In this document: piece by piece, positions 57,001 through 63,000 of the stretch | Position numbering within the stretch: the stretch's first letter is position 1 | Layout: every line of letters begins with the position of its first letter | NCBI GenBank assembly: GCA_030690305.1 | Contig: JAUYHB010000013.1 | Coordinates: 5,221-69,220, forward strand | DNA length: 64,000 nt | DNA from: a bacterium | GTDB lineage: Bacteria; Patescibacteriota; Minisyncoccia; Phycocordibacterales; JAGLPS01 | Direction of reading: 5' to 3' | Position numbers: made by a program

Positions 57001-60000
57001 TCCAGAAGAGCGGTGCGTGTTGCGGGTCCTCCCACTTGCGGAGGGTATAACGGAGTTGCGATGAGGATTTTTTTATTTTTGTTCATTGCTTTATCTTATT
57101 AAAAATTTTTCCCTTGTACCATTTTATTTCAGCCGCCAAACCCTCCTCCAAAGAAACCCGAGGACTATATCCCAACAGGGCTTTGATTTTCCCGATATGA
57201 GCCGATGTCTCAAACTGATCCCCCCGTCTGCGGGGAAGGATTTTGAGTTTTGCTTTTTGTCCCATAATTTTTTCGACTATTTGCATTCCTTCTCCGGTTG
57301 TCGCCGTTTTATCGCTTCCCATATTGAAAATTTCACCATTAACTTTTTCCAAATTGTTAAGCGCCAAAATACAGCCGTCAACGATATCTCCGACATATGT
57401 ATAGCTACGAACGTGGTACTCGCTGCCCGTAAAAAAGGATACTTCTTTGTTTTCTAAGATTGATTTGATGAGACGATGATAAAACTTTTCCGGGCGCTCC
57501 CGCTCTCCATATACCGAGAAGAATCTTAAAACCGAAACAGGGATTTCGAGGTCACGATAATATGACATCGCGAGCTGTTCCGCGGCAAGCTTGGTTACAC
57601 CATAATAGGATGTAGGCTTTGGTTCCGTTGTCTCATCACCGTCGGCACGCACTCCGTATACTGAAGACGTAGATGCCTGAAAAAACATTTTAAGTTTAGA
57701 AGATTTTTTGGATGATTGAAGCAAGCGTTCCGTTGCAACAATGTTGTTGTTCAAATAGTCCTCAAATGGCGTGGTTGCGGAAATGCCCGGCTGCGCTGCC
57801 ATGTTAAAAATAACATCGACACCTCTTACAATATTATCAATAGGGTCGTTAACTAAATTTTTAAAAAAAATCTTCCCGCCTTTTTCTTCAACATCTTTTG
57901 CGTTAATTTTTTTGATTTCCGGAGAATAATAATCGGTTAACGCGTCAATGCCGACAACTTCATGCCCCAAGCCTAAAAGGCGCTCAGCTAAGTGAGAACC
58001 TATTGCACCGGCTACTCCCGTCACCAAAATTTTCATCTTATTTTGTGCCCCATGTGTGGCCGTTTAATCGCACGGCTTAATGGAAGTTTGTTCCCACAAT
58101 TTATCACAAAAAGGCCTATAAATAAAGCTAAAATAAAGATTCGAATTTTTTAAATTCGTAATCAGGACAGAGTTCTCTGAAACCCGCGTGTGAGGTCTTC
58201 GGCAATGCCATTCCAGTAATATTTATCACAGACGAGATTTTTGGCGTTTGCCGAAATCTGTCCTGAAAGGGAAGCGTCTTCCAGGAGGCGTGTAACTTTC
58301 GAAGCGACACTTTGAGGATTTCTGGTTTCGCAAAACAGGCCGGTGGGTTCGTGGTCGGGATTTGCATCCGGGTCAAAAAGAAAATCAACAATTCCTCCAA
58401 CAGGAGTTCCGATAACGGGGATTCCCGCGGCCATTGCCTCAAGAAAAGAATTTCCAAGACCTTCGGAAATCGATGGACGGACAAAAATATCCCCGAGCGA
58501 GAGGTATTTTGGAATTTCTTCATACGGAACGGCTCCGATGAAATGCGTTCTTCCTTTAATCTTTTTCTCCTTCGCAAGAATTTCAAGGGAGTTTCTCTCG
58601 GGACCGTCTCCTACGACAAGAAGGTGTACGTATTCGGGCAAAAACGAAAGTGACCGGATTGTGTCGGCTACGGCATTTTTAGGGACGAGTCGTGAAGTGG
58701 TAATAAGAAATTTTGTTTTTTCGTCCGCAGGCAAATTATGGCGTGTACGCAATTCGGCAAGCTCTATCGTGGCATACCCTTTGAAAAATCGGGCGACATC
58801 CACTCCGTTCGGAATAACTTCCGCTGTTTTTGAAAAACCTTCCGATTTTGCGTGAGCCGCAAGAAAATGCGAGATAGCGTGTATATAATCGGCTTTTTTG
58901 AAAATAAGACGGAAAAGCGGCAAAAGAATGTTCATACGGCGATGTATGTGCTCAACAGAATCCCCTTCTTGAAGATTAAGGAGAAAGGGAATGCGGAAAT
59001 GGACAAGCTTGAAGAATAAAGCGGCGAGGCCCGCATACGCGGCCATGATTGACCACACCGCGTCATATCGTTTTCCCGCGTGCATCCAGAGTGCTTTGAA
59101 AAACGCAAGAAAAGGAAACAAATATTTGTTTATGGAAAAAGGAAACGCAATGACTGAGTGATTCGGCGCGTCGCCGGCAAAACCGATACGGTGCACCCGC
59201 ACGTTTCCGATATCTTCAACTGCAGGGAGCGCCCGATCGATACGTAAAGTAATCATGTCGAATTCAAAATTGTTTCCCATGCGGTCGGTTAATTCTTTTA
59301 CGGCAACCTCCGCGCCTCCGACATACGGAAAATACGTAAGAGAAAAAATAAGAATGCGTTTCATTCCGTCAAAATGTTTGATAGTGTTTGCTCCCTGTTT
59401 CATTCAATTATTGTTATTTCGTCCGCCTCATTTTTTTTCGGCTTTGCAAAAAAGATAAAGGCGATCGGGATACCGACAACCGCGCCAAGGCCTACGAGCC
59501 ATGGCATAAGAGGGCTTTCTTTAGCCGCAAGAGCGGCGGTTTGTTCTGTTTCAGACACAATACTTTCAGGCGTTATACTAGCAGATTTTTCGGGAAGAAC
59601 ATATGCTTGTTTTGTTGTTTTTTTCTCCGATACGGATGGAGTTTTTTCATCAATTTTTTCTTCCTGAGGTGAAGGAGGGGAATCTGTGATTTGAGAAGTA
59701 GACTGGATTGGTGGGGTTTCTTGTAATTGCTCTTCCGAAACGGTAACTGAAATCGTATCGGAAGCAGTTTGTCCTTCGTAAAATACATTTAACGCAACCG
59801 TGTATGTTCCTTTGGACGTGTAGGTATGGGAGACATTTTTCCCCTCACTTCCCTGCCCGTCTCCAAATGTCCATATGTATTGAGCTGAGGTAAACAGGTC
59901 ATTGTCTTTTTTTGCCTGCCCTTCAAATATTATCGGTTTACCGATAGTTGTTTGCGTACCACTCGTAATAGAGGCAGAGAGCACGAATAAAGGCGTCTGT

Positions 60001-63000
60001 GTCGAAGACTGTTCCGTTGAATTTGTGTCCGTGGTGGAAGGTACCGGCGAATCCGCAGAGGATGTATTTGTCATTCCCGGCGTCGGAGATGAAGCACCCC
60101 ATGTCCCATTTATTTTTTGCAGGGAATTACCGTCTCCTTTTGCTCCCATTGTTTCCGAATACGCTGCGGAGTCGCGTACAAGACCTTCGGCGTCAATAAG
60201 ACTTACCGTTGTATTGGTATTCTTTAAGCTCATTGCCGTGTCTATAATTGTCGCGGAAAAACCAGAGTGATCAACAATAAATTGGTGTGCGTCAGCCGCG
60301 AGAATAAAAAATGTTCCGGGTGAAATCGTAAATGAACCCTGTCCACCGTTTTCCACTGAGGGTTCATTGAATAAATGGTTTGAGCCATCATTAAATCTCC
60401 ATCCGTCCTGACCCCCGGAAAGGACAACATCTTCCGGTCCCTGATTATATATCTCCACCCATTCCCTTCCCGTATCCGATCCCGGAGACGGCAAGTCATA
60501 CATAATTTCGGTTATTTCAAGTGCGGCAAAGGAATGCAAAGGAAAAAGAAGGAGAAGTGGAACGAAAAAACGCATAGTGTTATTTATCGTCTTCCAGAAC
60601 TTTTTTTAAGGTAGATTCCGGAATTTCTTTGGGATGTCCAGACTTCCCTGTGCCTTCTACGGGCGGTTTGGATTCCGTTGATTCTTTCTTGGGCTCTGCC
60701 GGCTCTTCTTTTTCGCTTTTTGCCAAAACATCCGCAAGCGCTTCTTTAAGTTCGGAGAGACTTTTTTGCGTCGGTCCTTTATTTTCTTTTTTCTTTTGCT
60801 GATATGCAGGAGAAAGAGTGTTGAGAGATACAGGAACGGGCGTGGGGATAGGCACAGGAGAAGAGGACGGAGGCACCGGATATTTTTTCACTGGCACACT
60901 ATTTTCTCCGGAGCGAAGCGCAGAAAAAGGATTCGGCCGTTTTTCTTCCACAGGTCTTGCCTGTTGGTTGTTAAATGCGGGACGTTTGTTGTTTTCTTCC
61001 TTTTTGATGGGTTCGTGCCAGTTTCTGATATATTCCTCGACAGTAGTCCGTGTCTGAGCGAATGCCTGGCGCGAGTGTTCGATAATCTTGTCCTTGTATG
61101 ATGTCGAAGGGCGGTCAATCGGAGGAAGAGTGGTGGCGGAGAATGGAGGAGAAGTGACTCCCTCAATCATCAGCTTCAGATAGATTTGGGTGAAGCCGAG
61201 GTTCACCATGTCCTCGAGTGTAAACTCCGGAGAAAATTCTTTTTCTAGAACTTCGGCGTCATAGGCACCAACACGGAAAATAACCATCGTGCCCACGTTT
61301 CCAAAGACAGCGGCGCGCACTTCTTCGGACATCTGCTCGATATACTGATGCGCTATAGTAAGGCTCAGTTTGTATTTTCTCGATTCCGAAAGAATGTCGG
61401 CAAACGATTCGTTCGCAAACGACTGGAATTCGTCGACAAAAAGATAGAACGGCGGAAGACTTTTCATTTGGTTTTCGCTTGCATCCGCCCTTGACATCGC
61501 CCCGAGATATATTTTGGTAATAAGCATGCTTCCCAAAAGATTCGCGTTCGCTTCCCCCACCCGGCCTTTTGAAAGGTTGATGATGAGTATTTTTTTCTCA
61601 TCCATCACTTTTCGCAAATCAAACGTCGATTTCGGCTGTCCGATGATGTTTCGCACAAGTGGGTTTGAAATGAATTGTCCGATTTTATTTTGAATAGCCG
61701 CACCGGCTTCTTGCATATACCTATCTCCATATCGGGCAAACTCGTCGGTCCAAAACGCCTTGACCGAGGGGTCGGTGATGTTTGCGATAACTTTGTTTCG
61801 ATAGTCTTTGTCGGCAAGCATGCGGTTAACACCGATAAGTGTTGAGTCCGGATATTCAAGAAGAGCCAGCAAAATGTTCCCCAAAATATATTCCATGCGC
61901 GCCGACCATGCGTCTATCCATATCTTCTTGAACGCGCTCATCAGGCCGTTCGCTACGAGGTGGCGTTTGTCGGGTCCAACATCCTCCATAACATTGAAAG
62001 AAATGGGATGGTCGGTATCAAAAGGAGCAAAGTAAATAACGTCTTTTGCCCGCGATTCGGGAACATAATCCAAAAGAAGTTCGGCGGTCTTGCCATGCGG
62101 GTCGACAAAAGCCATGCCTTCACCGTTTTGTATATCTTGGATGGCCATGTTTTCAAGCATGGTGGACTTACCCATTCCGGTTTTCCCAATGACATATACG
62201 TGACGTGAACGGTCTTTGAGTTTTATGCCGAACTTCTGTTTTCTGCCACGTGCATCGGTTTCGGCAAAATATATGACTTTATTTTCATCGTGCATAGAAA
62301 CAAATTTACCCAAATTATATAATTTTAAGGGCTAAATTAAAACTCCCGAAAGGTGAAAGTGTTTATTCGTCGGGAAGAGCGGAACCGGGGGTATACGTAT
62401 TTGCCGCGTCCCACAACATCCATGAATCAAGCCCGGCATCATAGGTCGCTTGAATTTGAGCCCGGACCATTTCCTTTGTATATACCGCCCCCAAATCAAA
62501 ATCCTGAAGCCAGGGCCTGATTTTTTCAGGAGTTGTACTTGCCCTTTTTACCGCGGAATCAAGAGAATATCGAACCACTTCGTACGGTTTTTCGGAGGGA
62601 TTTGAAAACCCGAGAAAGGTTTTCGGATAATGAGAGGGATACACCATCGGTGCGACAAAATCAAAAAAAGGAAGCGTGTATTCAAGCACTTGTCCGATGT
62701 TGAGATCGTCGTAGTTTGTTGCCGTCATACCAAACAGGTCCGCGGAAAGTATCGCCCCGGTTCCCGAGAGTTTTTCTTTAAGATACGAAAAGAATGCTTC
62801 AAGAGCATGGGCTTTGCCGAACTCCGGATCTGAAACAATCATCTGTTCACTCCACGGATAGTAAATATCGGACATATTGCCGTCGGAAGGAAAACGAATA
62901 TAGTCGAAATTGAGTTCGTCAAAACCTGCTTTGTAAGAAAGTATACCGAGGGCAACGATGTAGTCCCAGTATTCACGGGCCGATACATCAATAAAACTCA

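Follow-up and report, generated by a model that had tools for sequence, protein, structure and literature searches.

A predicted membrane-anchored LTD-PKD protein encoded between a T4CP-like ATPase gene and glycan biosynthesis genes in a Patescibacteria bacterium

Introduction

The 64,000-nucleotide stretch of contig JAUYHB010000013.1 (positions 5,221 to 69,220; assembly GCA_030690305.1) analysed here, referred to as the window, comes from a bacterium of the Patescibacteriota and includes a gene at 59400-60575 for a protein that combines a lamin tail domain (LTD) with a PKD domain. The gene lies beside a run of glycosyltransferase (GT) genes, and an earlier note on this DNA had named its product as a likely glycosylation substrate. 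The locus therefore raises the question of what this LTD-PKD protein does and whether the neighbouring glycan genes serve it. The protein is probably a variable, membrane-anchored surface adhesin or ligand-binding protein of a Paceibacteria-type member of the Patescibacteria (candidate phyla radiation, CPR), and the domain content, tail conservation, divergence and genetic context that point to this are described below, followed by the other functions that were considered.

Domain composition and predicted topology

The 391-aa open reading frame (ORF) was confirmed at 59400-60575 on the minus strand. In Pfam hidden Markov model (HMM) searches, PF00932 (LTD) matched aa 17-139 with 51.1 bits (cut-off 34.3, E=2e-13) and PF18911 (PKD_4) matched aa 203-279 with 55.7 bits (cut-off 27, E=5e-15); PF00801 (PKD) scored 41.3 bits (cut-off 23.5, E=1.5e-10). 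The PKD motif WTFGDG, of the WxFGDG type, is found at aa 235-240. An AlphaFold2 (AF2) model calculated from a 50-sequence family alignment, A1, has a mean predicted local distance difference test score (pLDDT) of 78 and includes two confident beta-sandwiches, aa 19-165 and aa 199-280 (pLDDT ~90). Each domain thus has both a score above the gathering threshold and the beta-sandwich fold of its family.

The predicted protein begins with a signal peptide (aa 1-17, MRFFVPLLLLFPLHSFA; 60525-60575, minus strand), recognised by a hydropathy scan and its n-h-c pattern, MR-FFVPLLLLFPL-HSFA, with a signal peptidase I site that is judged heuristically to be probable after SFA. There is no lipobox, as the protein is without any Cys. 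The LTD beta-sandwich follows (aa 18-165; 60081-60524; Pfam PF00932 and AF2 pLDDT 84-96) and is strongly acidic, with a net charge of -14 and an isoelectric point (pI) of 4.2. Linker 1 (aa 166-198, 33 aa; 59982-60080), which is disordered according to AF2 and its composition, consists of 45% Ser+Thr and 58% Ser+Thr+Pro, and leads to the PKD domain (aa 199-280; 59736-59981), assigned from Pfam, PDB sequence matches and Foldseek. Linker 2 (aa 281-352, 72 aa; 59520-59735), also disordered by AF2 and composition, forms a membrane-proximal stalk rich in E, S, T, P, Q and K (Ser+Thr 26%). The disordered stretches in the AF2 model are aa 173-192 (pLDDT <50) and about aa 281-352 (pLDDT ~40), and both linkers are non-repetitive. 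A C-terminal transmembrane (TM) anchor (aa 353-377, ESPLMPWLVGLGAVVGIPIAFIFFA; 59445-59519) was identified by hydropathy scan and as an AF2 helix; hydropathy places this single C-terminal TM segment at aa 354-379 and AF2 places the helix at aa 356-376, after which comes KPKK. These features predict a Sec-exported type-I (N-out, C-in) membrane protein.

Other classes of surface protein were searched for in the same sequence. It contains no LPXTG-like motif, and no NCBIfam model of a curated C-terminal sorting signal (PEP-CTERM, GlyGly-CTERM, PGF-CTERM etc.) matches it; the 14-aa segment beyond the TM helix ends in an acidic-hydrophobic motif rather than as a basic stub, which sets the protein apart from sortase and sorting-signal substrates. 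Pfam detected no nuclease (EEP, YhcR-like), HhH, OB or other catalytic domain, and neither Pfam nor NCBIfam detected a carbohydrate-binding family. NCBIfam offers no family-level name for the LTD-PKD protein, nor for the DUF4015 protein and the 125-aa membrane protein encoded upstream. Foldseek searches of the PDB returned only generic PKD or Ig-like matches and nothing specific to the LTD.

The signal peptide, LTD, PKD domain and C-terminal TM segment had all been described in the earlier note, and each is upheld by Pfam, hydropathy and AF2, including the domain HMM searches that the note had proposed, in which PF00932, PF00801 and PF18911 all exceed their gathering thresholds. Its two linkers of about 70 aa agree with linker 2 in length, though Ser+Thr there is 26%; linker 1 is about 33 aa rather than about 70 because the LTD fold extends to about aa 165. 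The tail beyond the TM helix, with its conserved motif, was absent from that description.

A conserved cytoplasmic tail

The last 14 residues (aa 378-391, KPKKNEADEITIIE; 59403-59444, minus strand) are placed in the cytoplasm by the positive-inside rule. They consist of a basic cluster followed by a conserved acidic-hydrophobic motif (...ADEIxIIE-COOH). This tail is the best-conserved part of the protein, sharing 71-86% identity with relatives P0002, P0003 and P0006 that are 38-59% identical overall, and this holds for the most distant of the three (38%) as well. Linker 1 shows the lowest identity, 30-36%.

The family HMM consensus ends in ...kkkkeadeieIie, and a motif [DE][DE]-hydrophobic-x-I-hydrophobic-[DE] occurs near the C-terminus in 47/111 and 25/50 family members. 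In the form ...[AS][DE][DE][FYI]x-I-[IVL]-[DE]-COOH it also ends P0002, P0003, P0006, P0010, P0017, P0061 and others. Among 2,092 ORFs from the window and all the loci described below, 328 of which carry a C-terminal TM segment, all 36 motif-bearing ORFs belong to the LTD-PKD family.

A different ending, ...EEDDKIPF, ...DSNPIPF or ...DNEKPF, is found in P0015, L054 (LTD ORF 9057-10721), P0059 and P0050. We take these ends to resemble the acidic D-D-D-I-P-F tip of bacterial single-stranded DNA-binding protein (SSB), though the examples are few and may be due to chance.

A large family with a fast-diverging member

A 100% identical match carries the annotation 'MAG: PKD domain-containing protein [Patescibacteria group bacterium]', and identical loci were present in two Logan assemblies, SRR13727534 and SRR26726065. 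Nearly all of the 310 homologs returned have both LTD and PKD and, where a source is named, come from Paceibacteria or Patescibacteria. When 1.84 billion representatives were searched with a profile, 13,878 matched at E<=1e-30, a count that is inflated by giant multi-PKD proteins; dozens of the best 150 matches are full-length and single-stretch. Searching genome contigs with the single LTD-PKD protein yielded only distant LTD or PKD matches in unrelated phyla. A search of the literature turned up the lamin tail domain in connection with CPR or Patescibacteria as an incidental mention only, and nothing on protein glycosylation in Patescibacteria. The protein adds an uncharacterised member to known domain families, and the family that it belongs to is large.

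The typical homolog is 450-550 aa long and has a second LTD after the PKD domain (LTD-PKD-LTD). Short forms without the second LTD include the window protein and the three relatives closest to it (59, 51 and 38% identity). A degenerate second LTD in linker 2 was considered and rejected, as an HMM of the second LTD plus stalk from 46 long forms aligned with the stalk part only, at a non-significant score. In this alignment linker 2 is the counterpart of the long forms' stalk, and the second LTD is absent. The segment equivalent to linker 1 is 30-70 aa of low complexity across the family, with a median Ser+Thr fraction of 0.28. The N-terminal LTD (the region equal to aa 18-165) is acidic in all 50 members of alignment A1, with net charges of -8 to -22 and a pI of ~4.1, a uniformity that suggests binding of a cation or cationic ligand, and not of nucleic acid.

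With the exception of GT4c, which has no clear ortholog in L022 or L023 (best match 30-34%), no gene of the syntenic block diverges faster than the LTD-PKD gene. Between the window and L023 the LTD-PKD proteins are 51% identical, whereas the ATPase encoded upstream is 88%, DUF4015 84%, GT4a 78%, the two epimerases 86-90%, and GT4d and NUDIX, the lowest of the other orthologs, 68% identical. The corresponding values for L022 are 59% for LTD-PKD, 86-94% for most neighbours, 67% for GT4d and 71% for NUDIX, and for L024 they are 38% for LTD-PKD, 71% for the ATPase and 59% for GT4a. Fast divergence relative to neighbours is a pattern typical of exposed surface proteins.

Gene order and packing in the window

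Every gene between 63899 and 52525 is encoded on the minus strand. Read 5' to 3', the order is the 125-aa membrane protein, DUF4015 (62363-63532), an ATPase resembling type IV coupling proteins (T4CP; 60580-62313), the LTD-PKD gene, and the first GT4 gene (58162-59403; Pfam Glycos_transf_1 and Glyco_transf_4). The glycan run that begins after the LTD-PKD gene consists of GT4, epimerase, GT4, GT4, GT4, epimerase and NUDIX genes, down to 52525. The LTD-PKD gene starts 4 nt past the stop of the ATPase gene, and its own stop codon TGA (59402-59400) overlaps the start codon ATG of the first GT4 gene (59403-59401), forming a 4-nt ATGA overlap (59400-59403, minus strand) that was read from the sequence and the gap table. 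The intergenic distances are thus 4 nt and -4 nt, then 125 nt before the next gene. The same -4 overlap was found in L023, L040, L049, L078 and L104.

A consensus scan of the minus strand between 62313 and 58162 found neither a sigma-70-like promoter nor an intrinsic terminator, though scan counts were near the shuffle expectation and this is weak negative evidence only. The sole strong hairpin in the terminator scan, a 14-bp GC-rich stem followed by a T-run at 52408-52438, lies between the convergent NUDIX (minus strand) and HD-domain (plus strand, 51709-52392) genes, and probably closes the minus-strand run that includes the LTD-PKD gene as a bidirectional terminator. GC and GC3 (GC at third codon positions) do not distinguish the LTD-PKD gene from its neighbours.

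It is now clear that the gene order in the earlier note was reversed. The LTD-PKD gene had been placed downstream of the glycosyltransferase operon, and is in fact 5' of the GT genes. The overlap at 59403 does exist, but joins the LTD-PKD stop to the start of the first GT4 gene and not to the last, and the ATPase gene only 4 nt upstream had been missed. Co-transcription with the glycan genes, also proposed there, agrees with the lack of promoter or terminator consensus between the coupled genes, but remains only plausible, and the same applies to co-transcription with the ATPase gene.

The neighbourhood in related loci

Nine homolog loci were looked up and 80 metagenome loci were retrieved with the family alignment, and their ORFs were searched with the window proteins. 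A T4CP-like gene is directly upstream on the same strand in 38 of the 64 loci with enough upstream sequence, mostly with gaps of 0-50 nt or overlaps. GT4 or epimerase genes are found within 2.5 kb downstream in 28/61 loci, immediately downstream in 21, and no GT gene is nearby in the other 33/61. The recurrence of glycan genes beside the family in related genomes, proposed earlier as a check, therefore holds for part of the family and fails for the remainder. In the 49 loci that could be evaluated on both sides, T4CP-like and GT genes occur together in 18, a T4CP-like gene alone in 9, GT genes alone in 3, and neither in 19 (odds ratio (OR) 12.7, p=4e-4). DUF4015 and the small membrane protein are commonly 2-4 kb upstream, with Mur ligases further upstream.

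The reciprocal comparison used three T4CP-like homologs picked solely for their long contigs (n=3). None of these three T4CP-centred loci contains an LTD gene, and all have GT4 genes downstream; Mur ligases are elsewhere in 3/3 (upstream in 2, downstream in 1) and DUF4015 is upstream in 2/3. The LTD-PKD gene is therefore an accessory insert at the T4CP/GT4 junction, because the three loci keep this junction without it. The backbone is roughly Mur ligases, DUF4015, T4CP-like ATPase and GT cluster. In L111 the ATPase gene and the first GT4 are separated by an unrelated gene for a 204-aa membrane protein (7810-8424), and this position may vary between lineages in the envelope protein that it encodes.

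Several further arrangements were seen. L026 has a gene for a 141-aa membrane or surface protein at the T4CP/GT junction (11557-11982) that, like the 204-aa gene of L111, has no Pfam match. In L026 (6861-8066), L038 and L043, a DUF8128 protein takes the place of DUF4015 directly upstream of the T4CP-like gene. Members without a T4CP-like gene are located after a PilB-like T2SSE gene and ruvB in 7-8 loci and by transketolase genes in 4 loci. A sister subfamily with LTD-PKD-LTD (L027, L037, L057, L081, L094, L097, L107 and L110) is directly downstream of the PilB-like T2SSE gene and ruvB; its members have short basic tails, e.g. ...KKPKTH and ...IKKFIP, and in L027 the LTD-PKD-LTD gene is between ruvB and yebC-ruvC.

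A probable surface adhesin or ligand-binding protein

Surface exposure and a role in adhesion or ligand binding are what we infer for the LTD-PKD protein. The signal peptide would route it through Sec and the C-terminal helix would retain it in the cytoplasmic membrane, with the 14-aa tail inside the cell. The 72-aa stalk and the 33-aa Ser/Thr-rich linker would hold the PKD domain and the acidic LTD off the membrane, through or above the wall, where the ectodomain would most likely bind or adhere to a host, matrix or cationic-glycan ligand. The gene probably shares a transcript, and is probably coupled in translation, with both the ATPase gene and the glycan cluster. The function of bacterial LTDs is not established, though they have been proposed to target proteins to membrane-associated structures or to act alongside oligosaccharide-binding domains (PMC6085458).

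Four points weigh against this interpretation. The signal peptide is predicted from hydropathy and sequence pattern only, and the adhesive or binding role is deduced from domain types. The tail is strongly conserved and should therefore also have a function inside the cell, which a pure adhesin does not explain. A functional partnership, and not just synteny, might account for how persistently the T4CP-like gene accompanies the LTD-PKD gene.

The glycan island and possible glycosylation of the linkers

The GT4 genes downstream of the LTD-PKD gene form the end of a glycan-biosynthesis island of at least 40 kb (about 11985-59403), very large for a small-genome organism. It includes genes for a Wzy_C+TPR protein (11985-14363), an ABC exporter (16611-18431), a carbamoyltransferase (37160-39043), an RmlD-C-methyltransferase fusion (39629-41677), a PMT_2 GT-C protein (46996-48366) and a GtrA-like protein (48378-48818), of which the Wzy_C+TPR and PMT_2 proteins are candidate extracytoplasmic transferases. 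GDP-mannose dehydratase and epimerases, RmlA- and RmlB-like proteins, GT2 and GT4 enzymes, TylF- and CmcI-type O-methyltransferases, two GT11 fucosyltransferase-like proteins, an Asn-synthase-like protein and three DegT aminotransferases are also encoded. Five ORFs of 265-455 aa in the island have no Pfam match (33736-34644 and 34641-36008 on the plus strand, 36010-37227 on the minus strand, and the rest in 48849-50517 on the minus strand). A 261- and 276-aa pair is kept beside DegT in L023 and L024.

Wzy_C domains are found in O-oligosaccharyltransferases such as PglL, PilO and WsaB, and S/T/P-rich linkers of Actinobacteria are O-mannosylated by Pmt enzymes. It is possible, though on balance doubtful, that the LTD-PKD protein is a dedicated acceptor for the adjacent glycan genes, with its Ser/Thr linkers O-glycosylated after export by e.g. 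the Wzy_C-TPR or PMT_2 GT-C protein using lipid-linked sugars from the GT4 and GT2 enzymes. The ATGA overlap with the first GT4 gene would fit this, as would the recurrence of GT and epimerase genes downstream of the gene (28/61), the 45% Ser+Thr of linker 1 and the low-complexity linkers of the family (median 0.28), and the presence in the window of candidate transferases and exporters (Wzy_C+TPR, ABC exporter, GtrA-like, PMT_2 and GT2). However, the GT cluster is not dedicated to the LTD-PKD protein, because the same T4CP-GT4 junction occurs without an LTD gene in 3/3 T4CP-centred loci, and 33/61 family loci have no nearby GT gene; obligate genomic coupling of the gene with glycosylation genes is thus not what was found. 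Nor is the Ser+Thr content of linker 1 higher in GT-adjacent members (0.27 vs 0.31, p=0.26). The GT4 enzymes score far short of the trusted cut-offs set for protein-glycosylation families (SdgA, 35 bits vs 800; PglJ, 57 vs 500) and are generic, being TuaC-, BshA- and EpsE-like with all NCBIfam matches sub-threshold. The candidate transferase genes are 11 and 45 kb distant, the 40-kb island is more simply explained by synthesis of a wall or surface polysaccharide, and type IV pilins or S-layer proteins would serve just as well as candidate acceptors. Glycosylation of the linkers is compatible with a surface adhesin and may possibly hold in addition to it, but is not required by it.

The neighbouring T4CP-like ATPase

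The gene directly upstream (60580-62313, minus strand) encodes a T4CP/TraD/VirD4-like P-loop ATPase with Pfam domains T4SS-DNA_transf, TrwB_AAD_bind and TraG-D_C, Walker A (GKTGMGKS) and Walker B (YLFVDE) motifs and a low-complexity C-terminal third. A search with the ATPase gave at least 8,000 matches, the best 120 at 61-88% identity, making it far more conserved and widespread than the LTD family. No TM segment was found in the window ATPase or in any of 120 T4CP-like homologs. Scores against the NCBIfam TraD, VirD4 and CedD models are all sub-threshold (TraD, 56 bits vs 366; CD1115, 43 vs 250), and the PDB match to TrwB is weak (E=1.8e-3) and confined to the P-loop. No type IV secretion system (T4SS) genes were seen in the window or the annotated loci, and a search of viral contigs with the T4CP-like protein gave no matches. 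The ATPase therefore carries Pfam T4CP domains yet lacks what defines canonical VirD4/TraD/TrwB proteins, namely a score above the trusted cut-off, a TM anchor and T4SS linkage.

Similar genes are known from the phylum. A survey of 2,918 Patescibacteria genomes reported 5,713 VirD4-like T4CP genes, 148 of them near virB4, and a VirD4-like gene that is non-essential in Ca. Southlakia epibionticum and possibly exapted for another function (Microb Genom 2025, PMC12102498). The window ATPase resembles these orphan T4CPs in being VirD4/TraD-like, widespread and away from virB4. The survey does not mention 'lamin' or 'PKD' (PMC12102498). The placement between DUF4015 and GT4 clusters is derived here from a small sample. 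The extreme conservation of the ATPase and its recurrence within an envelope block (Mur ligases, DUF4015 and GT4; L111-L113, L023-L030) with no T4SS genes hint that the Patescibacteria orphan T4CP has a housekeeping, envelope-related role.

That the LTD-PKD protein is the membrane partner of this ATPase, with its conserved tail docking the hexamer and its helix supplying the missing TM part, appears unlikely. Recognition of C-terminal peptide signals is typical of T4CP and FtsK-like secretion ATPases, and the tail is both the best-conserved part of the protein and specific to the family in the sampled loci. The T4CP-like gene is directly upstream in 38/64 loci, and a TM segment was found in 0/120 of its homologs, in contrast to the membrane anchor of canonical T4CPs (PMC12102498). 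Orphan T4CPs in Patescibacteria may, it has been suggested, have been 'exapted for other functions' (PMC12102498). However, the tail motif shows no significant association with T4CP adjacency (16/37 vs 7/23, OR 1.7, p=0.42) and many T4CP-adjacent members have a short basic tail only. The T4CP-like gene also occurs without an LTD gene in 3/3 T4CP-centred loci, and is far more conserved and widespread than its supposed partner. The broader proposal that the whole LTD-PKD(-LTD) family is the membrane or extracellular half of a Patescibacteria-specific two-part machine, in which the tail recruits the orphan ATPase, is likewise rather unlikely; if true, a variable surface receptor would be coupled to a hexameric motor within a cell-envelope/glycan locus.

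Glycan tether and DNA receptor

A further proposal, which we consider improbable, is that the protein is a lectin-like tether that binds the polysaccharide of the adjacent cluster and holds a capsule, wall or S-layer glycan on the cell. The Foldseek matches do include surface glycan-binding and S-layer proteins, e.g. 7kv6 (SGBP-B) and 1l0q, the acidic LTD could bind a cationic polymer, and GT genes are linked in relatives. The conserved DUF4015 protein encoded upstream is part of a putative group of hydrolases, relatives of enzymes whose substrates are cationic amino-sugar polymers. LTDs have in addition been reported beside oligosaccharide-binding domains (PMC6085458). Set against this are the lack of any carbohydrate-binding family by sequence, structural matches that are generic Ig-like ones with a low TM-score over the whole query, and the rapid divergence of the ectodomain compared with well-conserved GT genes.

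It is very improbable that the protein is a receptor for extracellular DNA in competence or scavenging, with the LTD capturing DNA that the ATPase (or, in the sister subfamily, PilB and RuvB) would process. In its favour, LTDs are known from extracellular nucleases, ExeM among them, and from putative DNA-degradation loci (PMC6085458, PMC8289736), the neighbour falls in the VirD4/TraD/CedD-like DNA-translocase superfamily with sub-threshold matches, and a PilB-like T2SSE gene and ruvB precede the LTD gene in 7-8 T4CP-negative loci. This reading is disfavoured because the LTD is acidic in 50/50 aligned members, the opposite of what a direct DNA binder needs. In addition, Pfam detects neither a nuclease nor an HhH or OB domain, ExeM does not need its LTD to degrade extracellular DNA in vivo (PMC6085458), and one TM helix cannot form a channel for DNA.

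Comparison with known systems

The surface adhesin or ligand-binding protein favoured here shares modules with several described proteins and is distinct from each. ExeM of Shewanella oneidensis (ExeM/NucH type) is a nuclease, whereas the window protein consists of LTD and PKD domains, disordered stalks and a conserved cytoplasmic tail. The 82-aa PKD module is 27-35% identical to those of ColG/ColH collagenases and archaeal surface-layer proteins (4jrw, 4aqo and 1l0q), with TM-scores of ~0.8-0.87; Foldseek gives 0.85-0.87 to the ColG PKD and ~0.85 to 4jrw and 4aqo. In all of these, as presumably here, PKD domains are extracellular spacer or binding modules, but the window protein has only the single PKD in common with them and is without a protease, beta-propeller or collagen-binding domain.

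The haloarchaeal S-layer glycoprotein has a Ser/Thr-rich O-glycosylated stalk by its C-terminal anchor, and bacterial slg clusters encode an ABC exporter and WsaB, a Wzy_C-type O-oligosaccharyltransferase. The window protein resembles S-layer glycoproteins in having a predicted signal peptide, Ig-like ectodomains, a low-complexity stalk that includes Ser and Thr, and a C-terminal TM segment, and the window resembles slg clusters in its large glycan cluster with ABC exporter, methyltransferase, Rml-type and Wzy_C-TPR genes. However, at 391 aa the protein is much smaller than S-layer glycoproteins, has no lattice domain, PGF-CTERM or sortase signal, and its stalk is 26% Ser+Thr. Serine-rich repeat (SRR) adhesins of Gram-positive bacteria, glycosylated by GT4 enzymes encoded next to them (GtfA/B or SdgA/B), likewise have a surface-protein gene beside GT4 genes and Ser/Thr-rich low-complexity sequence. 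They differ from the window protein, which has no long SRR arrays (its linkers are 33 and 72 aa) and no LPXTG, and no accessory SecA2/SecY2 was seen in the window, where there is one SecA gene (7874-10426) and GT4a scores 35 bits against 800 for SdgA.

Significance

The result is a routine surface-protein annotation in which the gene order has been corrected, and not a new system. The analysis does define a large family characterised by a signal peptide, an LTD, a PKD domain, usually a second LTD, a stalk, a TM helix and a conserved tail. Most Patescibacteria are uncultured, and their way of life is believed to be one of attachment to other cells; surface proteins such as these are likely mediators of it.

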